Positions 3 through 53,668 of a stretch of 53,668 bases of DNA are shown one piece after another; position 1 is the stretch's first letter; every line of letters starts with the position of its first letter. The stretch is from a virus. Taxonomy: Duplodnaviria > Caudoviricetes. A model generated the notes under the pieces. That model did not search any database and was not told the DNA's origin. It worked only from the letters and a program-made list of their open reading frames with translations. The DNA lies in IMG/VR virus record IMGVR_UViG_3300036546_000216, positions 1 through 53,668 of that record. One strand, 5' to 3'. A program made the translations under genes and the position numbers.

Positions 3-137
3 CGATACAATTCTGAGGTTAGGCAAGGATTGACTCCCTCTGATGATATTGTCGCTCTTGACGCTTACATACAGGCATTGAGAGATATCCCAGACCAAGC
101 TGGATTTCCTTGGAACGTGGAGTGGCCTACGTTATGA
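3..137 (+). CDS. Tail fibre assembly chaperone, C-terminal part (5' truncated)
   Basis: Hand translation ...LDAYIQALRDIPDQAGFPWNVEWPTL* matches the typical YRQALRDIP..GFP..V.WP chaperone C-terminus; stop overlaps the next ATG (ATGA). Confidence 0.7.
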   Translation, partial: RYNSEVRQGLTPSDDIVALDAYIQALRDIPDQAGFPWNVEWPTL

Positions 138-718
138 ATTACACAGACCTCTTTTCCATGAGCGGATGGCAAACCATAGGGGATGATACTCAGTATTTGA
201 TTCACGAAACAGAGAACGAGTATGTCATTGCCTTCTATGGTTCAGATTCAAAGGCAGACTGGAAAAACAATTTTGCGTTCAGAAAGAAACCCTACAAAAA
301 CATGCCTGTTCCATTCTCTGTCCATAGAGGTTTCTTGAAAGCATGGAAATTGATTAATGACCATTTCATAAACCTCGTGAAAGACATTGATAAGCCAATC
401 ACGATTATCGGGCATTCATATGGAGGGGCAATAGCTACACTCTGCATGGAAGATTTATGGTTTCATTATCCAGAAAAACGAGGGTCCTTGAAGCTCATTA
501 CGTATGGTTCTCCCAGAATCATAGGGTGGAAGAATTATTGCAAAATCAAGGATAGGTGGGAAAATTCCACCATCTACTCAAACAGGATTGATTTAGTGTC
601 TTGCTTACCACCATTCATGTTTGGATACAGGCATGTGAAAAAGAGGACGTTCCTCAAGAGCAAGCATCCAATGAGATTCAAGGAAAACCATATGATTTGG
701 AATTACGAGAAGGGATGA
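134..718 (+). CDS. Class-3 lipase (alpha/beta hydrolase)
   Basis: IAFYGS oxyanion region, VHRGF, nucleophile elbow GHSYGG, TYGSPR, DLVSCLPP, C-terminal His; ATG 134 is coupled to the upstream stop. Confidence 0.85.
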   Translation: MNYTDLFSMSGWQTIGDDTQYLIHETENEYVIAFYGSDSKADWKNNFAFRKKPYKNMPVPFSVHRGFLKAWKLINDHFINLVKDIDKPITIIGHSYGGAIATLCMEDLWFHYPEKRGSLKLITYGSPRIIGWKNYCKIKDRWENSTIYSNRIDLVSCLPPFMFGYRHVKKRTFLKSKHPMRFKENHMIWNYEKG

Positions 719-797
719 GCCATTTCCAATACCATGGAAGGGATGGTTGTAGGGAGTGGGTTTCTGATAGGTCTTTCGGCTATAGGAGGGTGATGGA

Positions 798-1664
798 TTG
801 GAAATACCGATGCTACGGCAGGTTGAGTTTACAAAAGGGCATTTCGGATTGGCACTGTTCAGTGACATTCATCTGGGTGCCACCGACATCCAGGAGGACA
901 AGCTCAAGGACGACCTGAAACGCTCGTGCGATGAGGGTAGGCGAATCCTGTTCAACGGTGATATTGTCGAGGCAATCCTACCCATGGACAAGAAACGATA
1001 TACCCCCTCAAGGGCGATGAGCCAACGGGATGATGTGCTCAACGAGATGACCTACTATGCTGTGGATTTTCTTGCCCCATACGTTGACTATATAGACCTC
1101 ATTGGCACAGGAAACCATGACGACGCTCCCATCAAATACAACGGATACGACATCGTGGGAGCAATCGTAACCCTGCTCAACACCAAGCGATCAAAGACCT
1201 TGGGCAATATCCACAGGGCTGGTTATCAGGGATATGCACGCTACTGCCTTGCAGACAACTACAAAGGCAGGCGGATGCACCACAGCACGTTCACCATCTA
1301 CCATCACCACGGCGCTGGTGGTTCGGCTCCTGTATCAAAGGGAATGATAGATATAAACCGTATCGTGTATGCCCATGATGCCGACCTCTATTGGATTGGG
1401 CACAAGCATGTGGGGACACACGACCCTTATATCATCCGTGACGGTCTCACCGTACAAGGCAATTACAAGGTGCGCAGGAGTCAGGCGGTGTTCACTCCTG
1501 GATACAAGAACGCAAGGAATATCAGCCCGAAAGAGGGTGGGTACAACTATGACTACTCAGACCATTTCTACAACATGCAGGCTTGTGGATATGCTGTTGT
1601 GGATATTTTTCAAGATACAAAGTCCAAGATGCTGAAAGAGGACTTCGAGGTGGTTTCCCGATAG
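798..1664 (+). CDS. Calcineurin-like metallophosphoesterase
   Basis: Motifs SDIHLG, NGDIVE, GNHD, HHHG, GHKH; GGAGG 8 nt before the TTG start. Confidence 0.85.
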   Translation: MEIPMLRQVEFTKGHFGLALFSDIHLGATDIQEDKLKDDLKRSCDEGRRILFNGDIVEAILPMDKKRYTPSRAMSQRDDVLNEMTYYAVDFLAPYVDYIDLIGTGNHDDAPIKYNGYDIVGAIVTLLNTKRSKTLGNIHRAGYQGYARYCLADNYKGRRMHHSTFTIYHHHGAGGSAPVSKGMIDINRIVYAHDADLYWIGHKHVGTHDPYIIRDGLTVQGNYKVRRSQAVFTPGYKNARNISPKEGGYNYDYSDHFYNMQACGYAVVDIFQDTKSKMLKEDFEVVSR

Positions 1665-1674
1665 GAGGGTAATT

Positions 1675-2076
1675 ATGATTGATTTTCTGATTGCATTGGC
1701 CGTCTCAACCGTTGGGGTGGCTTGTCTCATGGAGATGCTCAAGGCTACGGTCAACAGCATCCGAGTTGCTGTGATACGCAAGAAGGTCGGCTACGGGGCT
1801 GAGAAGGATTTCCCCGTGCCGTCCTACGTCTGGTGGATTGCCGCAGGGTTGCTGTCCATCGGTGCGACCATCCTTGCATGGAAATCGGTGCTTGCATCCG
1901 AGGAACCGGTGACAGCCCTGCTCTCCATTCTCACAAGCGGTTGGTTCCTTTCTGTTTGGATCCCGATTGTCTGGTGGGTGCAGATGCAACTCGACATGCA
2001 AGTAATCAAGAAGTACGCCGTGCCGATTCTCAAGAAGGTGCTGGCGAAGAAGCTGGAGGTGGATTATGATGATTGA
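1675..2076 (+). CDS. Membrane protein, holin candidate
   Basis: About three hydrophobic segments, charged C-terminus, good RBS, upstream of a spanin-like pair. Confidence 0.5.
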   Translation: MIDFLIALAVSTVGVACLMEMLKATVNSIRVAVIRKKVGYGAEKDFPVPSYVWWIAAGLLSIGATILAWKSVLASEEPVTALLSILTSGWFLSVWIPIVWWVQMQLDMQVIKKYAVPILKKVLAKKLEVDYDD

Positions 2077-2440
2077 CACTATATTTTTCCTCATGAGGAA
2101 TCCTTGGGTGCTGACACTGCTCCTTGCCCTCGCTGGGCTGTTGGGCATCTCTGTGCAATCCTCACGGCTGAAGAAGGCCAAGCAGAAGGTTGAGGATGAG
2201 AAAGCCCATGCAGAGTACGAGAAGCGTCTGAGACAGCAACAGCAACAGCTTGTGGCTGACTCCGAGAAAGCGAAGGAGGAATACTCCGATGAGAAGGACG
2301 AGGCGGTCGGCAGTGTCGTCCCCGAGATGGAGAAGGCTAAGGCTGTCCCCAAGGACAAGCAGAAACCCTTGGGTGAGGATATCAAGACGATGGCGAAGGC
2401 GCAGGCCGAGCGTATCGCAAAGCGGAGGGCGAAGAAATGA
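2066..2440 (+). CDS. Inner-membrane spanin (Rz-like) candidate
   Basis: One N-terminal TM helix then a charged coiled-coil; followed by a lipoprotein gene. Confidence 0.5.
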   Translation: MMIDTIFFLMRNPWVLTLLLALAGLLGISVQSSRLKKAKQKVEDEKAHAEYEKRLRQQQQQLVADSEKAKEEYSDEKDEAVGSVVPEMEKAKAVPKDKQKPLGEDIKTMAKAQAERIAKRRAKK

Positions 2441-2715
2441 GGAAAGTACTATTGGCGCTTCTCATGATATGTGCCATGTTGCTTGGCGGGTGCAAGACGG
2501 TCGAACCGGTAGTGCAGCAGAAGGTGGTAATCCCAGACCTGTCCACCATGCGGGTCGATGTCTACGAGCTATTTCCTCTCATCGCCGAACCGCAGACGGA
2601 CGCAGACCTCATGTACAATTCTCTGGTGAACGAGCTGGCAGGTGTCCTTGAGGGGGCGTATGCCGACATGCTTGAGTCACAGATTGAGGGGGTGAGGCTG
2701 ACCTTGGATGAATAG
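2437..2715 (+). CDS. Lipoprotein, outer-membrane spanin (Rz1-like) candidate
   Basis: MRK + hydrophobic core + lipobox LLGGC; ATGA overlap with the previous gene. Confidence 0.55.
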   Translation: MRKVLLALLMICAMLLGGCKTVEPVVQQKVVIPDLSTMRVDVYELFPLIAEPQTDADLMYNSLVNELAGVLEGAYADMLESQIEGVRLTLDE

Positions 2716-2937: not shown

Positions 2938-2984
2938 TTACCTTCACACGGTAGAAGTCAGCAGTTCAAAACTGCTCGCGCCCA
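2938..2984 (+). other. attP: attP core: 3' half of tRNA-Val(CAC)
   Basis: Anticodon arm TTACC-TTCACAC-GGTAG, T arm AGCAG-TTCAAAA-CTGCT, acceptor 3' strand CGCGCCC-A; no D arm or 5' acceptor strand upstream; next to the integrase; TGATGGC repeats (about 2805, 2817, 3067) may be arm-type sites. Confidence 0.8.
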
Positions 2985-2985
2985 T

Positions 2986-3026
2986 AGGGTATCTAGTTAC
3001 AGTATAAGTAATTAGATACCCTTTTT
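2986..3026 (+). terminator. Intrinsic terminator downstream of the att tRNA half
   Basis: AGGGTATCTA...TAGATACCCT followed by a T run. Confidence 0.7.
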
Positions 3027-3121
3027 GTATCAAAATGCCCAAAACACGCTTTTTTGGTGAAAATTCTGATGGCTGATTGCCATATTGGAAGAGGGGGTGT
3101 ATACTTCACCTAGGAGGCAAA

Positions 3122-4516
3122 ATGATGCCAAAAAGCACCGCTGATTTTAAGTATACCGTATTCGAGCGTGAAGGGTACGGCTGGTACTTCCAGTACGGTG
3201 TCGGTGACGGCAAGAGAAGCCCCATGCTTTCGGTTAAGCGACTGGTCAAGAAGATGGGACTGGAAGGCGAATACCCGAAGCTCAAGAACAGAAAGATGTG
3301 TGAGCGCATCGTGGTGCTCGCCTACGAGCGTGGGTTCATCCGCATGAAGCGTGGCTCGAAGGAGAAGCTCGCCGACTACCTCACCGACTATTGGGATTTC
3401 AACGGACAGCGTATCAAGCGCAAGAACCGCATGGTCAACGGCAAGGGTCATGAGTCGGTATCCGAGAACTACGCATCCATCATGCAGGGGTACATCAAGA
3501 ACCATGTGGTACCGAGGCTCAAGAAGGATATGACAATCGAGGATGTCACACCTCGCTTCGTGAGGGACTTCATGCACCGTCTGGTGGACAAGGGTGAGCT
3601 TGCGAACGCAACCGTGGACAAGATCATGGTAGCATTCACCAAGCCGCTCAGGGACGCTTGGAAGGATGACATGATCCATGAGAACCCGACCAAGCTGCTT
3701 GACAGTATCGACACCACCCCGGAACGCATGAGGGGTATCCTCACCAGGAGCGAGTTCCAGAAGGTGCTCGTACTGCTCAAGGACAAAGCCACCGAGCACA
3801 CCTACCTAGCAGTCCTCCTTGCAGCCGCCACGGGCATGAGGCTTGGGGAGATTCGCGCCCTGAGAACCACCGACATCACCATCATCAACGAGACGGACTC
3901 CATCGTCACCGTCTCAAGGTCATGGTCGGTGAAGGGTGGCGAGAAAATCACCAAGGGCAAGAAAGAGCGGTTCGTACCCTGCCCCACATGGCTGGCCGAG
4001 AAGCTGGCCACCCTGGGAAGGTTGAACTCCTATGGGACGGACATGGTGTTCTGGTCGATCGTGGAGACGAAGGACAACTCGCCCGTATCATCCAACTACA
4101 TCCGTGAAACATTCTACACGTTCCTTTACGACGTCCTTGAGGAACAGGCTGGCGTGAAGGTCGGGACGATGGTGGAGGACACGGATGCAACGGAACGCGG
4201 CAGGTTCAACAAGGAGGGCAAGCCGTTGATGGTGCGTGCAGGCGAGATGATGAGGCGCGGGCGCAACATCAGCTTCCACAGCTTCCGGCACTTCTTCAAC
4301 ACGGAGGCTCAGGCACTTGGGGCTGACGGGGACAAGCTGAGGCTGACCGTCGGGCATGAGAGCAAGGCAATGACCGACAACTACACCCATGCGGAGAAAC
4401 GGCTTGATATGGTCAAGTCGATTGCGGATATTTCGCACCTCATCGTTGGTGAGGCGGAGATAATAGATGATTCGGAAGAACCTACTGAATGTAAACGTTT
4501 ACAGAAAAAGGAGTAA
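3122..4516 (+). CDS. int: Tyrosine recombinase / phage integrase
   Basis: TGMRLGEI, FHSFRH, VGH, catalytic Y in DNYTH; GGAGG before ATG 3122. Confidence 0.95.
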   Translation: MMPKSTADFKYTVFEREGYGWYFQYGVGDGKRSPMLSVKRLVKKMGLEGEYPKLKNRKMCERIVVLAYERGFIRMKRGSKEKLADYLTDYWDFNGQRIKRKNRMVNGKGHESVSENYASIMQGYIKNHVVPRLKKDMTIEDVTPRFVRDFMHRLVDKGELANATVDKIMVAFTKPLRDAWKDDMIHENPTKLLDSIDTTPERMRGILTRSEFQKVLVLLKDKATEHTYLAVLLAAATGMRLGEIRALRTTDITIINETDSIVTVSRSWSVKGGEKITKGKKERFVPCPTWLAEKLATLGRLNSYGTDMVFWSIVETKDNSPVSSNYIRETFYTFLYDVLEEQAGVKVGTMVEDTDATERGRFNKEGKPLMVRAGEMMRRGRNISFHSFRHFFNTEAQALGADGDKLRLTVGHESKAMTDNYTHAEKRLDMVKSIADISHLIVGEAEIIDDSEEPTECKRLQKKE

Positions 4517-7203: not shown

Positions 7204-7369
7204 GATTTATGAAAAGGTTGTCTCAATTCTTGAAGAAGGTGTGAAGCCGTTGGAACAACTCTACACAGGGATGGGAGCAAAATTTAGTGTTGAGGATGTG
7301 GGAACAATAGCGGAGACGTTCTTTGCCATCTATAACAAAATGATTGATTATTACAAGGAGTTGAAGTGA
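7187..7369 (+). CDS. Hypothetical protein
   Basis: AAGGAGG RBS, coupled to the next gene. Confidence 0.6.
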   Translation: MEETNEIYEKVVSILEEGVKPLEQLYTGMGAKFSVEDVGTIAETFFAIYNKMIDYYKELK

Positions 7370-7764
7370 TGGAAAAGACTGAGATGATGAAGCGGTTTGA
7401 GGAAGAGACGGGAGGAAGAAGCACTGGAGGTTTCACCGATGGATTTCATTGTGTCGGGATTGAGGTCTGGCACTTTGAGTACATCGCATGGCTTGAAGCC
7501 AAGGCAGAAGCCTATGACAGGCTAATGAGTGATGGGAAGAAAACGCTCAAGGAACTTGCAAACATTCTCGGTAAACCTGTTGCAATCGATATAGAAAACA
7601 GGTTGTGGTGGTTTCCAAAGAAGCCGGAAATTGGGTGGACTACATGGATTTGGTACGACAATCAGTTCGGGAGTTTTGGAGAAGAACTTCCAAACGGACT
7701 CATAGCCTACACAGGCAACTGGAAAGACTCACTCACCCTGCCCGACGTATGGGAGGAAAGATGA
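7369..7764 (+). CDS. MEKTEMMK...LPDVWEE family paralog 3
   Basis: Same three conserved blocks. Confidence 0.75.
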   Translation: MEKTEMMKRFEEETGGRSTGGFTDGFHCVGIEVWHFEYIAWLEAKAEAYDRLMSDGKKTLKELANILGKPVAIDIENRLWWFPKKPEIGWTTWIWYDNQFGSFGEELPNGLIAYTGNWKDSLTLPDVWEER

Positions 7765-8757: not shown

Positions 8758-8903
8758 AAGAGTTCTGTTGCGCAGATTGCGAGTTATGCGGGAATTGGGA
8801 TCCAGAGAGGGGGTGTTTGGTAGGGGCGCAATCCATTCCTTGGGACTATGAGTGCCCAGATTTTTGTGGTCATGATTCGACCGATGGATGGGAGGACAAG
8901 TAA
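8754..8903 (+). CDS. Cys-rich small protein, copy 2 (49 aa, not in ORF track)
   Basis: Hand translation MKEFCCADCELCGNWDPERGCLVGAQSIPWDYECPDFCGHDSTDGWEDK. Confidence 0.65.
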   Translation: MKEFCCADCELCGNWDPERGCLVGAQSIPWDYECPDFCGHDSTDGWEDK

Positions 8904-9094
8904 TGAAAATGGACGATGAACTAAGGGTATACCGAGTCAAGGCAAATATCCGTGGAAAGGAAATGTATCTTGGTGAAGATGGAACCTTCTATCATGAGGG
9001 TGATAAGGACATCATTTACTTCACTAAATACCAAGCAACGAGTATTGCACTCTGCCTCAACCAGATAACCAAGACAGCGGATTTCTCGAGATAG
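8903..9094 (+). CDS. Hypothetical protein
   Basis: TAATG coupling and RBS. Confidence 0.55.
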   Translation: MKMDDELRVYRVKANIRGKEMYLGEDGTFYHEGDKDIIYFTKYQATSIALCLNQITKTADFSR

Positions 9095-9522: not shown

Positions 9523-9568
9523 AGGCAAAAAGGCTCCGGCTGGGCCAATGTGCAAACCAGCCGATCAT

Positions 9569-9639
9569 CGCAGGGTAGTGTAAAGGCAACATGTCGGCCT
9601 CATAAACCGACGCTCCAGGTCCGAGTCCTGGCCCTGCTA
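9569..9639 (+). tRNA. tRNA with CAU anticodon (fMet-like, atypical)
   Basis: Acceptor CGCAGGG/CCCTGCT with 1:72 mismatch, loop CTCATAA, T arm CCAGG-TCCGAGT-CCTGG; no encoded CCA. Confidence 0.75.
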
Positions 9640-9714
9640 TATGCGGAGCGATTACCCGCAGAAAAATATAGTAATACCTGGACGATTTAGCCTGTGCGGT
9701 CGTCTGGGAGTTTC

Positions 9715-12570: not shown

Positions 12571-12615
12571 CGCAAAAGTGACCGGAAAAATAACGCAAAA
12601 GTGACCGGAAAAATA
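12571..12615. repeat. Perfect 22-bp direct repeat, two copies
   Basis: CGCAAAAGTGACCGGAAAAATA at 12571 and 12594. Confidence 0.9.
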
Positions 12616-12741
12616 GGCGTCCTACCTCCACTAAGTTCAATAATATCGTACTTATCGTACATATTGTATGAATATTCAAACATTAATGAACCAGCTCAGT
12701 GGAAATATGAAAAAACTTTTTGGGTCCTATTTAAAGACCCA

Positions 12742-13380
12742 CTACTTGGTCAGGAATCCAGTAGGCTTGCAGACCTCATCCACAGCCTCCCTGGTCGCTT
12801 TTGCTGTCTCTGTCGTACTCCTTGACCCCAGAGCCATCCTGGACCCGCCAGCAGCCGCCCTGTACTCTCTCAGGGCCCTGCGGTACTTGCGCCCCCACTC
12901 CTCCCACTTGGGAACCGGTATATCCTTTGTGACATGGAAGGCATGCAGCATGGCAGGGTCGTCCGTGAACTCCCTGAAGCTCTCGAAGGCGTACACAGAG
13001 CGCTCCTTGATCTTCATGAGATGGGCCATTGTTGCCATGTCGATCCCGAACTTCTCCCTGGTGTCGCTCACCCAGAAATTCCTCTGGATCTGCCTGAACA
13101 TGCGGTGGTAGAAATGGTCGCACCGGCGCACGTCCATACGGCCCGTGACGTCCAGGAGCTCCTCATAGTTGACCTTGCGCCAGAACTCGCGGTGCATGTT
13201 GCGCACCCTTTCATTCTCCTGCCCGATGATTGCCACTGGTGCAAACGCCTGGGCCACCGTTACACGGTCGTACAGCGTCCAGTCGATCCCTTGCCGTTCC
13301 CCTACATCCGTAGCCCAATCGTGGATGGCAACGGCAGACGCCATAAGCTGCTCCCTGCATGAAATCTTGAAATTACCCAT
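12742..13380 (-). CDS. Hypothetical protein with possible XRE-type HTH
   Basis: TREKFGIDMATMAHLMKIKERSVYAFES resembles an HTH; AGGGGG RBS. Confidence 0.6.
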   Translation of the reverse strand: MGNFKISCREQLMASAVAIHDWATDVGERQGIDWTLYDRVTVAQAFAPVAIIGQENERVRNMHREFWRKVNYEELLDVTGRMDVRRCDHFYHRMFRQIQRNFWVSDTREKFGIDMATMAHLMKIKERSVYAFESFREFTDDPAMLHAFHVTKDIPVPKWEEWGRKYRRALREYRAAAGGSRMALGSRSTTETAKATREAVDEVCKPTGFLTK

Positions 13381-23461: not shown

Positions 23462-24564
23462 TGGCGGACGTACAAGCGGAATTTGAGATTGTGGAACCAG
23501 AACTGACCAAACCGACCTTCGAGGTCGTGGACGAGAATGGCGTGCAGAAGGTCGAGATCATCGGATTTTCAGACCCAGAGGTGACACCACAGGACGTGGC
23601 TGGACGCGAGGTGACTGTACGGAAGTCCATCGTACTCGGCAACGGCAAGATCAATATCAACGAGCTTACCGCCTACGTGGAGAACAGGGTGGCTGCGGTC
23701 AAGGCCATGGACATGGAGACCGCTGACGGGAAGGACATCAAAACGGCACAGTCAACGCTCAACAAGACCGCCAAGGAACTCTCCGACGTCCGCATCTCCA
23801 TGCAAAAAGTATGGGCACAGCCGTTCGACGAGAACATCGCCCAGCCCATCAAGAAGCTGGTCGCCTACATCGATGAGCAGAAGAAGGCCGTTGCCGAAAA
23901 GCTCAATGAGATTCAGAGGGCGTTCGAGGACTCCAGGAAGTCTGAGATCACTGAGATCAAGGATGAACGGCTTGCCAAGGAGTCAGAGTCCGTCGACAAG
24001 TACATCCACACCCTTACCTGGCTCGACGACCCAAGATGGCTGAACAAGACTGTCACAGTGAAGAAGATTGCCACTGAGCTTGATTCCAAGGTGACACAGA
24101 TAGTGGCTGACCTCAATGCGATCGGCATGCTCAACGCAGACAATCCGTTCGGCTCACAGCTCATGGAAGTCTACCGAAACAATGAGGGGAATCTTGCACA
24201 GACCCTCATGGAGAGCAAGCGCCTTGAGGAATCCGCCCAGAAATATGCGCAGATGCAGGCTGAACTTGCTGCAAAACAGGAAACTGAGCGTCTTGAGCGT
24301 GAGAAGGCTGAGGCTGAAGCCAAGGCCAAGCGTGAGGCGTTCCAAGAGGGTGGGACAGTCGAGATTGGCACTGCCGAGCCTCCCAAGTTCATGCAGCACG
24401 ATGAGCCTGAAGCAGTGGTTGATCTTCCCCCAGCCAAGGAAGAAGAGAAGAAGATCATTGTGGCATTCGAGGTCAAGGGAACCGTGGGCGACATCGCAAA
24501 GGTCGCAGAGTATATGAAATCAATCGGCTTGGCAAGTCGGTTCTTGAGCAAAAGGGAGGCATAA
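23458..24564 (+). CDS. DUF1351-like coiled-coil protein
   Basis: TLNK, PFD and DPRWLNKT motifs; lies in the recombination module. Confidence 0.7.
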   Translation: MMADVQAEFEIVEPELTKPTFEVVDENGVQKVEIIGFSDPEVTPQDVAGREVTVRKSIVLGNGKININELTAYVENRVAAVKAMDMETADGKDIKTAQSTLNKTAKELSDVRISMQKVWAQPFDENIAQPIKKLVAYIDEQKKAVAEKLNEIQRAFEDSRKSEITEIKDERLAKESESVDKYIHTLTWLDDPRWLNKTVTVKKIATELDSKVTQIVADLNAIGMLNADNPFGSQLMEVYRNNEGNLAQTLMESKRLEESAQKYAQMQAELAAKQETERLEREKAEAEAKAKREAFQEGGTVEIGTAEPPKFMQHDEPEAVVDLPPAKEEEKKIIVAFEVKGTVGDIAKVAEYMKSIGLASRFLSKREA

Positions 24565-25422
24565 ATGTCACAGGAAGCATTGGGAAAGAAGGAACAGGGA
24601 CACGCCATCGAGGCAAGGGTGATGAACAAGAGTGAGGGCAACAACGCCCTTTCCAGGAACTCGCAGAACGCAAGCATCTATCTGCCGGACACCAAGAGCG
24701 ACGCTTACAAGTTCGCCATGTCGTTCGCAAATTCGATGTTCTGCCCGAAGGTGTACCAAGGCAAGCCGGATGATGTGTATCTTGCCATGGCTTATGGCGC
24801 ACAGATTGGGTTGAACCCTCTCCTTGCTGTACAGAACATCGCTGTGGTCAACGGAAGGCCATCCGTGTACGGCGATGCCATGACAGCCATCGTGATGGGC
24901 CATCCAGAGACACAGGCATACGAGGACGGCTACAAGGAAGATGGAACCGCCTACTGCAAGATAACCAGAAAGGGCAAGACCGTCTACCGTGAGTTCTCCG
25001 AGGCCATGGCTCGCAGGGCAGGGTTGTGGGGTAAGGATATCTGGTCGAAATACCCCGAGCGTATGTTGCTTTGGAGAGCAAAGGGCAACGCCATCCGTGA
25101 CCTCTATGCTGATGTGCTCATGGGCATGTGGTCTGTGGAGGAAGCAAGGGATATGCCACAGAGCATCGAGGAAGAGATATTGAATGTCACTCCCATAGAA
25201 GGTGCCCCCGAGAAAAAACAAGAGGACAAGCCCAAGCAAGAAGCTCTTGGAAAGAAGGCTGAGAATACAGAGAATAGCAAGAAGGCTGACAAACCCAAGA
25301 AAGAGCCTAAATCCCCTACAATAGAATCTGACAACAGTCCGAAGTCGGAACAACATAAAGAACCAGAACAAGGTACCGACCTTGCTGGGATGTTCGATTC
25401 AGACGGAGCAGAAGCGTTCTAG
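24565..25422 (+). CDS. RecT-like ssDNA annealing protein
   Basis: PKVYQGKPDD, GLNPLLAVQNIAVVNGRP, WSKYPERML. Confidence 0.8.
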   Translation: MSQEALGKKEQGHAIEARVMNKSEGNNALSRNSQNASIYLPDTKSDAYKFAMSFANSMFCPKVYQGKPDDVYLAMAYGAQIGLNPLLAVQNIAVVNGRPSVYGDAMTAIVMGHPETQAYEDGYKEDGTAYCKITRKGKTVYREFSEAMARRAGLWGKDIWSKYPERMLLWRAKGNAIRDLYADVLMGMWSVEEARDMPQSIEEEILNVTPIEGAPEKKQEDKPKQEALGKKAENTENSKKADKPKKEPKSPTIESDNSPKSEQHKEPEQGTDLAGMFDSDGAEAF

Positions 25423-31845: not shown

Positions 31846-32076
31846 ATGAAAGGAAAGATTGATAAGTACGGGACTTTGTATATCGAGCGTGCTGGAAAAA
31901 TGAAGGACCAACTTTGCCCTTATGCCTCAGAGTGTGGTTCCCCCATTCCATGTAGCGATACGTGCCCGCTGTTCGGTGAGCCAAGACCAGAGACTGGCAC
32001 AGCAAGTGCCATACTCGATTTGTGCCAAGGGAAGAAGTTGTTCTTTGATAAGTTCACAGATGAAAGGGAGGCTTAA
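31846..32076 (+). CDS. Cys-containing hypothetical protein
   Basis: AGGAG RBS; CP...C...CPLFGEP. Confidence 0.65.
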   Translation: MKGKIDKYGTLYIERAGKMKDQLCPYASECGSPIPCSDTCPLFGEPRPETGTASAILDLCQGKKLFFDKFTDEREA

Positions 32077-32077
32077 T

Positions 32078-32515
32078 TTGGATAGATGTTTAACCAAAGA
32101 TGGCTATGAACAACTACTGGACGACCTCGCAAGTGCAAACGTACCAGTGGAGCAGACAAAGGAGAAGTTGATGAACGCTTTTGATTTGATTAGCAAAGCC
32201 TTGGAAGGTTCCGAGGCAGGCCACGACCCTGTGAAAAAAGGTAAGCTGGAGTACCATCGGTTGCCTCCCGAGCAACTCGCCGGGATGGCGAAAATCATGA
32301 ACGACGGTGAGGCGAGCCATCCCGTCGGGTACATGGACTGTAATCCGTTGGACTATTGGAATGCCCTTGAGAGGCACACCATGGCAATCCGCAGGGGTGA
32401 GCTGGTCGATCCCGACGATGGCATGAGCCACGCACTGCATGTTGCTTGCAACGGCATGATTCTCGACAGGATGTTGGAAGCAGGTAAGAAGTTAGTGTTC
32501 GAGAAGGAGAAATAA
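32078..32515 (+). CDS. dATP/dGTP diphosphohydrolase-like protein (DUF5664-like)
   Basis: NALERH, GELVDPDDGMSHALHVACNGMIL. Confidence 0.7.
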   Translation: MDRCLTKDGYEQLLDDLASANVPVEQTKEKLMNAFDLISKALEGSEAGHDPVKKGKLEYHRLPPEQLAGMAKIMNDGEASHPVGYMDCNPLDYWNALERHTMAIRRGELVDPDDGMSHALHVACNGMILDRMLEAGKKLVFEKEK

Positions 32516-34483
32516 TCACATCCCCAGATTCGATTTGAACGTTTGGCGACCAAGGTAACGCTTGGCCGCTATTTTTTTGCCTGAGATGCCGTTTGCGAGT
32601 GCGTTCAGTTTCGCCTCATGGGCGTCGTAGTCCTCTTTCTTCCATCCCGGAACGCCCGAGTAGTACCACATCGCCATGTTGTACACGTGGACGTCTATTG
32701 CCTCGTTGCGCTTGTTGTGGCTGTCCCAATAACCTTTCCTGCCACGACTGCCTGGCACGTATTCCTCGACGGTGAGCTGGGTGAACACCTCGGGAGGATA
32801 GTCCTCGCAGAACATGCACACAGCACCCTCATCGCTGTAGGCAAGCCTGAAGTTGGAGTACGCCTCCCCCTTGAGCTTGGATACGCCTACATCACGATAC
32901 ATGACATGCTTCACCACACCACCGGGGTAGGTCATCTTGGAAATCTTGAGGTCAGAGATGGCGGCGTTCTGCCTGTCAACACCACGCACGGGTATGACAC
33001 GCTCGCACTTGGGGTCAACCGACTCGGCGAACGCCTGCACAACCTCTGGGATGTACGAGCGGTCGATTGCGTTGAAGGCCACACCAAGTTCCAAGCCATC
33101 CTCCCGAAGATACATCGTATTGAGCACCTTATCGCGGTATTCCTTCCAGCAGTTTGCGTTGAGGTCCTTGGTGGTCTTTCCGGCTTCGCAGGCGAACACA
33201 TAGTGCTCAATGGAGCGTGAGCGCCCATCCCTGCACCAGCCCTTGACCTCTGTTTCCAGTCGGTCGAGCTGCACGTCGGTCCCGCTGGTGAGGAATAGCA
33301 CGTCTTTGGGGAACGAGCCGGCAGAGGTGTACCGCTTGTAGCTGTACTCCCTGCTTCTCGCCCAGAGCATCATCTTCTCTGGGTCAGGACGTGTTGCACT
33401 CTGCTCATACGGCAGTGCGAGGATGTTGTTGTAGAACGAGGTTATCGCCCCGAAGTCACCAAGTTCCTCTGCATCCTGTGCCTTGATGAACGATGAGACG
33501 ATGTTCCGCCATGAGCGGAACGGTGAGTACAGCCCGCTTATCCAGAAGCCCACGGAGGTGGGGTCGGTCTTTTTCGGGTTCGTCGGGATCCATGTCCCAT
33601 TCTCGATGAGCTTGGGCATCATGTACTCGTCGATTCGCTCCCCCGTCTCGGGTATCTCGTACCAGACCTCCTTGACGTCCTGCCCTTCTGCCCTCCAATG
33701 GAATCCCTTCCACTCAAGCTCAAAGAGCGTGCTATTAGGGCTGGTGAGGAAGTAATGCCGTTTGTCTGTGTTCTCGTAGAGTGCCATTATCTGTGACGAG
33801 TTGTTGGAAGGAGTGGAGGATACAACAATCTTCTCACGGCCACGATAGGTTGCGGTACGCTGGTCGGCAAGCTCCTTGCCAGAACCCTTGCCTTGGATGT
33901 TGGGAGGGAAGGCGTCGTACTCATCGAGCCAGACGATGCGGCACATGGTGGACATAAACGATGAGGCGGCCTCGCCGGTGGCACGCTTGAGGAAGCCGCC
34001 GGGGAACTCCTTGAAGTCGGTCGTGCTGCCCGTGGATCCCTTGCGTGCCGTACCGATGAGTTTCTTCAGCCAAGGGTTGTAATCGATCATGGGGTCGATG
34101 CGGGTGCGGACGAACTGCTTGCCCTCTTTCTCGTTCGGGAATCCGATGAGCATGCTGGTTGGGTCGTTCTCAATGTAGTAGCTGATGCCGTTGAGGATAA
34201 TCTGGGTCTTGGACATCTGGGTGCCCGTGACCATGATTATCTCACGTGCAGGGGAGGATGGGGAGCACTCGTCCATCATTTCCTTGGCGTAGGGGGTGAG
34301 GTCGAGACGGTACATGCCTGCGAACTGTGCCGGTGGTGGAATGTAGAGATGGCCGTCCACGAAGTCGCTGATGGTGGACATGGGATTGGGCCGCAACATT
34401 GCCGCGAACGTGGATGCTAGTTCGCTTCTCGCATTGAGGATGCTTTTCTTTGACCTTCTCCCGTTACCGGCTCTTTTCGGCAA
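32516..34483 (-). CDS. terL: Terminase large subunit, lambda gpA family
   Basis: TPYAKEMMD, Walker A-like GTQMSKT, Walker B LDEYD, SSTP, GTDVQ.DRLE, RNEAID. Confidence 0.93.
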   Translation of the reverse strand: MPKRAGNGRRSKKSILNARSELASTFAAMLRPNPMSTISDFVDGHLYIPPPAQFAGMYRLDLTPYAKEMMDECSPSSPAREIIMVTGTQMSKTQIILNGISYYIENDPTSMLIGFPNEKEGKQFVRTRIDPMIDYNPWLKKLIGTARKGSTGSTTDFKEFPGGFLKRATGEAASSFMSTMCRIVWLDEYDAFPPNIQGKGSGKELADQRTATYRGREKIVVSSTPSNNSSQIMALYENTDKRHYFLTSPNSTLFELEWKGFHWRAEGQDVKEVWYEIPETGERIDEYMMPKLIENGTWIPTNPKKTDPTSVGFWISGLYSPFRSWRNIVSSFIKAQDAEELGDFGAITSFYNNILALPYEQSATRPDPEKMMLWARSREYSYKRYTSAGSFPKDVLFLTSGTDVQLDRLETEVKGWCRDGRSRSIEHYVFACEAGKTTKDLNANCWKEYRDKVLNTMYLREDGLELGVAFNAIDRSYIPEVVQAFAESVDPKCERVIPVRGVDRQNAAISDLKISKMTYPGGVVKHVMYRDVGVSKLKGEAYSNFRLAYSDEGAVCMFCEDYPPEVFTQLTVEEYVPGSRGRKGYWDSHNKRNEAIDVHVYNMAMWYYSGVPGWKKEDYDAHEAKLNALANGISGKKIAAKRYLGRQTFKSNLGM

Positions 34484-35186
34484 TCTTGTCAGCCTCCTGC
34501 GTAGGGTTTTCTATCTTGTGTAATATGTCGGTCAGCACAAAATGCGCCTCGCCTATGACCGTCTGTTCGACCTGCTTCTCAAGGAACACGAACTTGTTTG
34601 CATCAATCTGCACGCCGTTGGTGGCAAGCCATTCCTTGAGGTTGCCCATGATTTTCATGGTGGTTCGTTGTGGCAGGGAAAGGATGCCGGTCTTGAGCCC
34701 ATTGAGTGTGGCACCGTAGACGGCGATGACGTCATTGCGCTCCAGGAGCTCGCCCTTCTGCTTGCGCACCCGCATCTCGGCCCACTCAGCCTTGGCTTTC
34801 TTCTCGCGGTAGTCCTCCCACGCCCTTGTGCCTCGCTTGGGAGGCTTGCCTACGTCGTCAGGATCGACGGGCTTCTGTTCCTCACTTTCTGTGATGTCAT
34901 CCATCTCACCCATGTCATCCATCGGCTTTACAGGGGGGATGTGGGGTATGCCTTCCATGTAGAGGCTCTTCCTTTTGGGTTTGGAGTTGTTCGCCCTGCC
35001 TGTGCCCGAGAGATTGTCGCTTCGGTTGTTTTCCCAATCCTCCTGAGCCCGTTTCCAGTCGATGCGCCCACTGGGTGTCTCATTGATGCGCCCGCTCTGT
35101 ACCGCCTTGGTGACTTGGGATTTGTTCACCCCCATGAAATCGGCGAACTCTGTCTTGGTGATGTATCGCTTTTTCGGTTCGGTCAT
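34464..35186 (-). CDS. terS: Terminase small subunit (Nu1-like)
   Basis: N-terminal HTH TEFADFMGVNKSQV, coiled-coil with GELL; directly upstream of terL. Confidence 0.75.
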   Translation of the reverse strand: MTEPKKRYITKTEFADFMGVNKSQVTKAVQSGRINETPSGRIDWKRAQEDWENNRSDNLSGTGRANNSKPKRKSLYMEGIPHIPPVKPMDDMGEMDDITESEEQKPVDPDDVGKPPKRGTRAWEDYREKKAKAEWAEMRVRKQKGELLERNDVIAVYGATLNGLKTGILSLPQRTTMKIMGNLKEWLATNGVQIDANKFVFLEKQVEQTVIGEAHFVLTDILHKIENPTQEADKIAEKSR

Positions 35187-53086: not shown

Positions 53087-53668
53087 ATGGCAGATCCCGC
53101 AATCCAGAGTATAAACCAGCATACGCAGAAAACCAGCCTCGACTGGCTATTAAACATCCTTGTCCAGCCATCCACAGGAACTGGCTCGGGCGTAGCACCT
53201 GCGGCCCATGAGCAGTACGGCCTGTCCCTCGACCTCTTGAGGCAAGCCTTGGTGGAGGTAGGAAATGTCGTGAACAACATCACCACTGAAATACCCGGTA
53301 AGGTGCTGGACGCACGGCAGGGGAATGCCTTGCGCATCCTGATCAACTCTGTTGCGGCCGGGGTGTTGTGGCAGGATCAAGTGATAGCCGTCAGCAATAC
53401 GCCTCCTGCATCTCCATCGGACGGGGACAGGTATATCGTCTCTACCGCTCCTACAGGAGCGTGGGAAGGCCATACAGGGGATGTGGCGGCCTATGAGACT
53501 GACGCATGGGCTTTTGCCACCCCGTCTGACCGGTGGGGAGTGTTCGTATACGACGATGCACAGTTTCTTTTATTCCATGAAGGGGTGTGGACGGTATTTG
53601 CCGACCTCGACCGCATCACAGAGATACTGCACGAAGCAGAGACCGCGAGAGATGCTATCCTTGAGAAT
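53087..53668 (+). CDS. Tail fibre-associated protein with DUF2793-like domain (3' truncated; not in ORF track)
   Basis: Hand translation MADPAIQS...NTPPASPSDGDRYIVSTAPTGAWEGH.GDVA; AAGGAG RBS. Confidence 0.75.
   Translation, partial: MADPAIQSINQHTQKTSLDWLLNILVQPSTGTGSGVAPAAHEQYGLSLDLLRQALVEVGNVVNNITTEIPGKVLDARQGNALRILINSVAAGVLWQDQVIAVSNTPPASPSDGDRYIVSTAPTGAWEGHTGDVAAYETDAWAFATPSDRWGVFVYDDAQFLLFHEGVWTVFADLDRITEILHEAETARDAILEN

Follow-up and report, generated by a model that had tools for sequence, protein, structure and literature searches.

The textbook account of lysis by tailed phages rests on a muralytic endolysin, and the documented exceptions to it are accessory esterases of the LysB kind and a hypothesis on phage WO that was advanced without experiment. 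The mycobacteriophage LysB esterase constitutes a third lysis function beside LysA (PMC6116005), whereas in phage WO a patatin phospholipase and a small holin-like protein adjoining the tail module have been hypothesised, from genomic inference, to form an alternative lytic pathway in phages described as having no endolysin, holin or spanin genes (PMC9203015). Here we analyse the segment 134-2715 of a 53,668-bp stretch of viral DNA, which is the whole deposited IMG/VR record IMGVR_UViG_3300036546_000216 (classed as linear; hereafter the window), and in which the enzyme slot of a lysis cassette is filled by two non-muralytic hydrolases, a class-3 lipase (Lipase_3, not a patatin) and a calcineurin-type metallophosphoesterase (MPE). 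We tentatively favour, with confidence somewhat short of even, the reading that this is a lysis module at the end of the late operon, running into attP and an integrase gene, in which two cytoplasmic hydrolases in the usual position of the endolysin would both act as holin-released effectors on ester or phosphoester bonds of the envelope, with no wall hydrolase needed.

Cassettes of the lambda S-R-Rz-Rz1 type share with the window a location at the end of the late unit, a protein with several transmembrane (TM) segments and a charged tail, and a type-II coiled-coil protein followed by an overlapping lipoprotein gene. The window departs from them in lacking a recognisable muralytic enzyme and in placing two non-muralytic hydrolases ahead of the holin-like gene. 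Its holin-like and spanin-like proteins score unconvincingly against known families (best 6e-4), and, as a further difference, the two spanin-like proteins carry no periplasmic cysteine apart from that of the lipobox. The mycobacteriophage LysB is, like the window lipase, an alpha/beta-hydrolase serine esterase/lipase that is encoded in a lysis cassette and cytoplasmic until the holin acts, and it is aimed at a lipid-linked outer layer; however, this mycolylarabinogalactan esterase works beside the muralytic LysA, whereas the window has no recognisable partner of that kind (PMC6116005). With the phage WO cassette the window shares a lipid-type enzyme and a holin-like gene near the tail module, a functional resemblance only and in both cases a matter of genomic inference, but WO has a patatin instead of Lipase_3, an ankyrin protein in place of the spanin-like pair of the window and, as described, no MPE, and its host, Wolbachia, is reported to have no detectable peptidoglycan (PMC9203015). 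Judged by titles and the opening of abstracts, none of the works among the matches listed in our literature searches treats a phosphoesterase as a phage lysis enzyme, and for lysis by a lipase or phospholipase the WO work is the sole parallel among the matches listed.

The cassette and its enzymes

The earlier note on this DNA, made from the sequence alone, had described five genes at 134-2715, encoding in order a class-3 lipase, a metallophosphoesterase, a multi-TM protein, a TM/coiled-coil protein and a lipoprotein, and both this order and the coordinates are borne out. The last four of the five genes lie 10 nt apart or overlap, and all five are real genes rather than chance open reading frames (ORFs), since they have homologues and keep their synteny in other contigs.

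The first gene (134-718, plus strand), whose ATG overlaps the stop codon of the preceding tail-fibre chaperone gene, encodes a minimal class-3 lipase/esterase of 194 aa that matches Lipase_3 (PF01764) at 1.3e-19, scoring 70.9 bits against a curated cut-off of 22, and phrog_21992 at 8.6e-22; no patatin match was listed for it in Pfam. LysB enzymes, by comparison, are cutinase-like and not class-3. The catalytic triad, S95 (in GHSYGG), D153 and H186, is invariant across 17 aligned members of the family, from which we predict that the enzyme is catalytically active. A sequence search of the PDB retrieves fungal lipases (2.7e-13), and the structural model (predicted local distance difference test score, pLDDT, 83.9) superimposes best on feruloyl esterase A (1uwc; Z 18.5, root-mean-square deviation 3.0, 188 aligned residues), followed by Rhizopus lipase (6a0w; Z 17.6) and plant phospholipase A1 (Z 15.6), while unrelated hydrolases begin at about Z 8. 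The modelled fold is, with certainty, that of an alpha/beta-hydrolase of the fungal lipase/feruloyl esterase A type, and structural neighbours with differing substrates fall within about 3 Z units of one another. Neither a signal peptide nor a TM segment was detected in the lipase by sequence and hydropathy.

The second gene (798-1664, plus strand) encodes the MPE, a protein of 288 aa that matches phrog_7339 (1.1e-17). At E ≤ 0.1, Pfam placed no family on it, PF00149 included, and many of the 101 homologues that we found, at 33-40% identity, carry a precomputed PF00149 assignment. The five metal motifs typical of the superfamily (DxH, GDxxD, GNH[D/E], H and GHxH) are invariant in 22 sequences and correspond to D23/H25, G54/D55, G105/N106/H107, H171 and H202/H204, and the enzyme is accordingly predicted from its intact motifs to be catalytically active. 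The fold and these motifs are common to the known calcineurin-like MPEs LpxH, Mre11/SbcD, PolD DP1, MJ0936 and GpdQ, from which the window MPE differs in that no subfamily stands out among its relatives, in belonging to a mostly viral clade and in a motif of that clade's own, an additional invariant Gly/Lys/Arg-rich stretch of the HHGxGGSAPVxKGMIDxxR type after motif IV. The three nearest Atlas clusters listed are 91-100% viral. The model (pLDDT 80.4; predicted template modelling score 0.84) gives 67 chains at Z ≥ 8 and 175 Foldseek matches at E ≤ 0.001, headed by proteins of four unrelated functions at similar Z (PolD DP1 16.3, MJ0936 15.6, LpxH 15.2 and Mre11 14.2), and the fold therefore does not reveal the substrate. 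By sequence, no solved chain in the PDB matched the MPE below E 0.65. A role as a lambda-type protein phosphatase was considered and dropped, there being no such chain among the matches listed. Like the lipase, the MPE has no signal peptide or TM segment and is cytoplasmic by sequence.

The gene that follows the MPE (1675-2076, plus strand) begins 10 nt after the MPE stop codon behind a GGAGG ribosome-binding site and encodes a protein of 133 aa in which hydropathy and sequence reveal three hydrophobic segments and a lysine-rich C-terminal tail that is acidic at its end. In size, TM segments, charged tail and cassette position this protein fits a holin, and we predict that it forms the hole in the inner membrane. 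Its third TM segment and charged tail resemble the product of a 98-aa gene that follows the lipase in the relative L114 (BLASTP E 5e-5; see below), and a comparison with the phrog_1129 holin found next to the MPE of another relative, L027, revealed no similarity (E 2.6). The next gene (2066-2440, plus strand), which overlaps the holin-like gene by 11 nt, encodes an i-spanin-like protein of 124 aa with one N-terminal TM segment and a highly charged helical/coiled-coil region (Rz-like, phrog_739 at 0.011 and phrog_1152 at 0.014), and a homologue (42% over 55 aa) directly follows the MPE in the related genome G406. The ATG of the last gene (2437-2715, plus strand) overlaps the stop codon of its predecessor; its product is an o-spanin-like lipoprotein of 92 aa with a signal peptide, an LGGC lipobox (Cys19) and a mature part of 73 aa that is not proline-rich and holds no cysteine beyond the lipobox (phrog_456 'Rz-like spanin', 6e-4). 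The homologue in L005 is likewise flagged as a lipoprotein with Cys19.

Related phages and the search for an endolysin

In the window, 85 ORFs were scanned, 6 of them at E ≤ 0.1 in both Pfam and PHROGs and the other 79 at E ≤ 0.01 in Pfam and E ≤ 0.001 in PHROGs, and no lysozyme, transglycosylase, amidase, CHAP, NlpC/P60, M15 or M23 domain was detected, in keeping with the earlier statement that the window holds no lysozyme, amidase, CHAP, M15 or M23. The sole 'endolysin' label in the window, that of phrog_2252/5033 on 31922-32515, falls on an ORF that matches the Pfam family dGTP_diPhyd_N (7.7e-16) and no muralytic Pfam family, and we therefore read the label as misleading. The same two families, phrog_2252 and phrog_5033 ('endolysin; inhibits RNA polymerase'), also match G406 at 12591-13100, where Pfam again recognises a dATP/dGTP diphosphohydrolase N-terminal domain, and the label is an annotation trap wherever endolysins are screened by PHROG label. 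No muralytic family turned up either when whole records of relatives were scanned at Pfam E ≤ 1e-3 and PHROGs E ≤ 1e-4, namely G406 (33,444 bp with terminal repeats; MPE 52% identical to that of the window; 43 ORFs of at least 75 aa), the closed G409 (57 ORFs), G404, which is the 48-kb record that contains L003 (Pfam on 53 ORFs, PHROGs on 50 of these), and G407 (43 ORFs, for which Pfam alone was used). G404 additionally encodes two PAPS-reductase-like genes (L109 6325-7212 and L110 5191-6207).

The closest relatives are the IMG/VR contigs L002 (MPE 98% identical) and L003 (86%), which keep the window order of MPE, holin-like gene, spanin-like genes, attP and integrase. Identities to the window in L002 and L003, respectively, are 100% and 51% for the holin-like protein, 100% and 74% for the i-spanin-like protein, 99% and 76% for the o-spanin-like protein, and 95% and 85% for the integrase. 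In place of the lipase, both contigs display a diversity-generating retroelement (DGR) upstream of the MPE, recognised by its RVT_1 reverse transcriptase (1.3e-18 in L002, 1.7e-19 in L003) and, in L002, by bAvd (6.7e-19). The DGRs of L002 (4007-5748), L003 (4015-5307) and the lipase-bearing contig L113 (2943-4633), all three with a reverse transcriptase, occupy the interval from the tail fibre to the lysis genes, which in the window corresponds to the lipase or the assembly gap. None of the five related whole records contains the lipase, and with the lipase absent and the MPE kept in the closest relatives, the MPE emerges as the fixed enzyme of the cassette in the lineage of the window. In several relatives, L002 and L003 among them, the MPE is immediately preceded by a small gene for a one-TM or lipoprotein-like product of 83-87 aa that is absent from the window (e.g., L004 4745-4996, L005 4704-4967, L006 and L027 4750-5004; weak matches to phrog_26616 'lipoprotein' in L004 and L005), and its product may be a further membrane partner of the MPE.

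The lipase has relatives of a different kind. On four viral contigs (L112-L115), the lipase is 90-92% identical to that of the window and is preceded by a chaperone whose C-terminus is 91-98% identical to the fragment at the start of the window, while an MPE is found in none of the four records. The earlier note had proposed to examine lipase-holin synteny in relatives, and the pairing is indeed kept: in all four of these close loci, the lipase stop codon is followed after 3-4 nt by the start of a 98-aa gene whose product has three hydrophobic segments, and among five more distant loci (49-66% lipase identity) a homologue of that gene (35-37%) lies at most 0.6 kb downstream of the lipase in two, L131 and L132. 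Lipase loci numbered 38 in our search. For five unannotated neighbours of the distant lipase loci, a sequence search of the PDB gave no match, and for two neighbours in L132 phage-record searches gave nothing, blanks that say little. Cultured phages carry only distant relatives of the lipase (13 records, all below 60% identity). G409, the record of L113, is 46,791 bp long and closed by a 127-bp direct terminal repeat, and its late operon ends with fibre, DGR, chaperone, lipase and holin-like gene. Its structural genes, the only ones scanned whole among the four records, are unlike those of the window (an SPP1-type portal and another terminase and capsid), yet the two genomes share early genes at about 89-90% amino-acid identity (window 7366-7764 and 8888-9094 versus G409 24656-25069 and 24465-24671). 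Common early genes in spite of unrelated head and tail modules imply a single gene pool, from which related hosts would follow, and the comparison reveals strong mosaicism and points to a shared host pool.

Beside the holin-like gene, the enzyme slot is thus occupied by the MPE only in L002, L003, G406 and G407, by the lipase only in G409, L112, L114 and L115, and by both in the window, and never by a recognisable endolysin, as checked over the whole record in two closed genomes. The earlier note had suggested that the lipase, possibly with the phosphoesterase, replaces the endolysin. The part of this that survives is the lysis position together with the lack of a recognisable endolysin in the window, G404, G406 and G409; the lipase, however, is not fixed in the cassette, and the MPE elsewhere lies beside endolysins. 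We have consequently shifted the emphasis to the lipase and the MPE as interchangeable holin-linked enzymes of endolysin-less cassettes, a view that is partly supported by this pattern.

A profile of the MPE detected 76 viral loci, and neighbours were annotated at 17 of these (135 ORFs by Pfam; 40 ORFs by PHROGs, two of which belong to L004 and L005, both close relatives). For relatives that are 33-53% identical, a Pfam holin is encoded no more than two genes away from the MPE at six loci (MPE identity 33-42%), namely Phage_holin_4_1 in L010, L011 and L020 and Phage_holin_3_3 in L013, L016 and L019, and in L027 a PHROG holin (phrog_1129, 9e-7) directly follows it, while in L006 it is followed by a weakly Rz-like gene. 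Cultured phages again contain only distant relatives (15 records, 24-29% identity). It is a fair statement of these neighbourhoods that the MPE clade is a recurrent resident of lysis cassettes, with or without a recognisable endolysin; given the genuine endolysins beside it in other lineages, 'replaces the endolysin' is too strong in general, and the MPE may be an accessory enzyme. The same loci also display other associations: a family-2 glycosyltransferase is encoded directly upstream of the MPE, with a LydA-type holin downstream, in L013 (3793-4815), L016 (3870-4877) and L019 (3810-4829), and tail proteins near the MPE in L016 and L019 bear BspA-type leucine-rich repeats, together with a DUF285 domain in L016.

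In the lysis reading that we favour, the holin-like protein would permeabilise the inner membrane late in infection, upon which the cytoplasmic lipase and/or MPE would gain access to the envelope and break ester or phosphoester linkages, not glycan or peptide bonds, in lipids of the membrane or lipids linked to the wall. Candidate targets are membrane phospholipids, the acyl chains of lipoproteins or lipid A, and pyrophosphate- or phosphodiester-linked lipids, and the spanin-like pair, where present, would deal with the outer membrane. The lipase and the MPE would be separate modules, with the MPE as the fixed partner in the lineage of the window and the lipase probably acquired along with the tail-fibre chaperone from a different type of phage that draws on the same gene pool and in which the lipase and a holin-like protein may make up the whole cassette. 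A wider proposition, which we consider possible but rather doubtful, is that a set of tailed phages from anoxic subsurface, hydrocarbon, landfill and wastewater habitats dispense with a peptidoglycan hydrolase and lyse their hosts by means of a holin-released class-3 lipase and/or a virus-specific MPE, and that the MPE clade represents an unrecognised class of phage lysis enzymes.

Alternatives to the proposed enzymatic lysis without an endolysin

Several of our results weigh against the lysis reading, and they are best considered along with the alternatives that they favour. Some concern the cassette as such: neither Pfam nor PHROGs gives a family for the holin-like protein at E ≤ 0.1, the PHROG matches of the two spanin-like proteins are weak (0.011 and 0.014, and 6e-4), and an excess of TM proteins among the neighbours of the MPE is borderline (22/45 versus 54/159 background ORFs by hydropathy, Fisher p 0.05), with at least one TM neighbour at 14 of 19 MPE loci that are not phylogenetically independent. 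Distant class-3 lipases (about 30% identity) are also encoded by cultured cyanophages.

The alternative that survives best, one we hold to be somewhat unlikely, is a conventional endolysin that has escaped recognition in the assembly gap or among the hypothetical proteins, with the lipase and the MPE as accessories in the manner of LysB. CheckV estimates the completeness of the window at 68%, both of its ends cut genes, many of its ORFs belong to no family, and our scans miss ORFs below about 60-75 aa and endolysins of undescribed families; how imperfect library coverage can be is illustrated by L021, whose phrog_894-type endolysin was missed by Pfam alone. As would be expected of an accessory, the MPE has a real endolysin no more than two genes away in L008 (phrog_465 at 3.5e-11, with a weak M15_4), L020 (2.2e-4), L021 (phrog_894 at 1.9e-10) and L023 (GH108 at 2.6e-18 with PG_binding_3), and in the Rhodobacteraceae phage LS06-2018-MD07 an annotated endolysin precedes it by four genes. 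LysB further provides a precedent for an esterase that works alongside an endolysin (PMC6116005). Against a hidden endolysin, however, the closed G406 and G409 are likewise devoid of a muralytic Pfam or PHROG family, and no unknown protein that could be a hidden lysin is common to the window, G406 and G409. Judging from G409 and L114, the gap itself most likely contains the remainder of the fibre, a DGR and the N-terminal part of the chaperone, and DGR repeats in it would account for the break in the assembly. The closed G409 is rated at only 57% by CheckV, so the 68% given for the window is probably too low as well.

Less likely still is that the lipase and the MPE are late-expressed cargo with no role in lysis, for instance a nuclease or nucleotide phosphodiesterase engaged in host DNA breakdown or counter-defence and an esterase moron. 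Accessory genes often gather beside lysis genes and att sites, and the region from fibre to cassette is a site of exchange, with a lipase in the window and a DGR in L002 and L003. The fold of the MPE is as near to proof-reading and repair nucleases (PolD DP1 and Mre11) as to the lipid enzyme LpxH, PHROGs labels its family 'DNA repair exonuclease', a distant relative in Geobacillus phages lies among DNA methylase and HNH genes, and in L024 the MPE sits between an HNH gene and methylases. Yet both genes lie tightly within the late operon, ahead of the holin-like gene, and leave no space for a separate promoter, the spacing being 10 nt or less or an overlap (MPE to holin-like gene in the window, lipase to holin-like gene in L112-L115), and their linkage to holin-like genes holds across holins of different families and across phage backbones. 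As both enzymes are devoid of a secretion signal, an extracellular role of either would still depend on lysis.

Finally, it is quite improbable that the lipase is an esterase of the tail-fibre module that modifies a surface receptor or acylated glycan at adsorption and is close to the holin-like gene only as the last of the tail genes, for although the chaperone and lipase genes overlap (ATGA) and travel together at 90-98% identity into another backbone, and the best structural match, feruloyl esterase A, is a carbohydrate-ester hydrolase (with the next-ranked true lipases lying about 1 Z unit or less away), the protein consists of its 194-aa catalytic domain alone and has no part by which it could be attached to a fibre, the holin-like gene moves with it as faithfully (4/4 close loci), L131 and L132 keep the pairing of lipase and holin-like gene at 52-53% lipase identity, and tblastn with the 44-aa chaperone fragment and the L003 chaperone, a weak test, found nothing in the more distant lipase loci.

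Genome context, host and implications

The genome around the cassette is that of a temperate, lambda-headed siphophage, with a head module of lambda type (GpA terminase, lambda portal, S49 protease, gpD-like decoration protein and gpE-like capsid), RecET-type recombination genes, replication genes and an integrase. The window has no terminal repeat. It opens with the C-terminal 44 aa of the tail-fibre assembly chaperone (3-137, plus strand; Phage_tail_APC 5.8e-12, phrog_8746 2.1e-8) and closes with the N-terminal 194 aa of a DUF2793 tail fibre (53087-53668, plus strand; DUF2793 1.8e-19 and tail-fibre PHROGs), the first 82 aa of which are 96% identical to the fibre of L002; both genes are truncated by the contig ends, and the unassembled gap lies between them. 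A protein of 1717 aa was placed near tape-measure clusters by Atlas, which serves as a lead only, and for two giant tail proteins a sequence search of the PDB gave no match, a blank that says little. The genes for the two terminase subunits, small and large, lie on the minus strand (32516-35186) and diverge from the portal and head genes, which begin at about 35567 on the plus strand, an orientation that is unusual for a packaging module of lambda type. The early region also encodes a tRNA-Met (CAT) at 9568-9640.

Downstream of the cassette, the attP core (2939-2984, plus strand) is not a whole tRNA but a 46-nt 3' piece of a tRNA-Val(CAC) that begins with the anticodon stem and ends with the discriminator base, as established by BLAST to tRNA-Val(CAC) genes of Spirochaetota and by ARAGORN on those loci; Rfam gave no match at this site, and metagenome scans revealed the same core in two further phage contigs. 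The terminator that the earlier note had reported is present in the form of a hairpin with a 15-pair stem and a T run (2986-3022, plus strand; consensus scan), but it lies after the attP core, about 270 nt downstream of the lipoprotein stop codon, and the scan found 5 such sites against 2.7 expected in the region, which is weak evidence alone. The tyrosine integrase (479 aa; 3077-4516, plus strand) follows, with matches to Phage_integrase (7.2e-16), Phage_int_SAM_5 (1.1e-7) and phrog_1 (2.5e-38). Its SAM_5 domain had raised the possibility of a Bacteroidota host, which was dropped in view of the strong GGAGG ribosome-binding sites of the window; Bacteroidota are not known to have sites of this type.

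A search for sequencing runs that hold DNA of the window showed metagenomes only and no isolate (20 rows from 16 studies, one of which may be the source), the sampled settings being shale-gas, subsurface, hydrocarbon, landfill, wastewater, oil-field and sludge. The presence of a spanin-like pair suggests a diderm host, though G409 does without such a pair. The MPE profile, run against 185,579 species genomes, detected 12 loci in metagenome-assembled genomes (MAGs) of many phyla at a best identity of 40%, and tables of homologues of TerL and the MPE, together with cluster look-ups, named no host taxon beyond 'bacterium' or 'Bacilli bacterium'. A Sphaerochaeta host, as the earlier note had supposed, gains no support from 401 sampled Spirochaetota genomes: the attP region (81 nt) matches 24 of them only as a generic tRNA-Val(CAC), at no more than 85% over 46 nt; its 28-nt T-arm/acceptor part, with up to 3 mismatches, occurs in none of the 401 and in none of five other MAGs; TerL at E ≤ 1e-20 is found in 23, at identities of no more than 32%; and the lipase profile detects 8, the best two of which are 33-35% identical with no holin-like gene nearby. 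Two metagenome scans for attP yielded, respectively, a blank and two further phage copies only, and a class-level host search, which covered five genomes only, gave no host either. The 401 genomes make up only part of the phylum, and Sphaerochaeta is therefore neither supported nor excluded by these results. The premise that this genus is wall-deficient is correct as to the lack of penicillin-binding proteins but otherwise overstated, since a visible wall and the complete set of genes for peptidoglycan synthesis are reported for Sphaerochaeta, which lacks only those proteins (PMC3372971).

Repeated linkage to holin-like genes is found for each of two enzyme families, neither of which cuts peptidoglycan, and in two closed genomes no other recognisable enzyme stands in that position. 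The cassette is a good, if as yet unproven, lead for non-muralytic, holin-dependent lysis enzymes. Should a hidden endolysin be at work instead, it would belong to a new muralytic family. If the lipase and the MPE are indeed lysis effectors, they would constitute a new enzymatic route of exit from the cell, give a function to a widespread and mostly viral MPE clade that is now labelled 'DNA repair exonuclease', and offer lipid- and phosphoester-directed lytic enzymes as tools.

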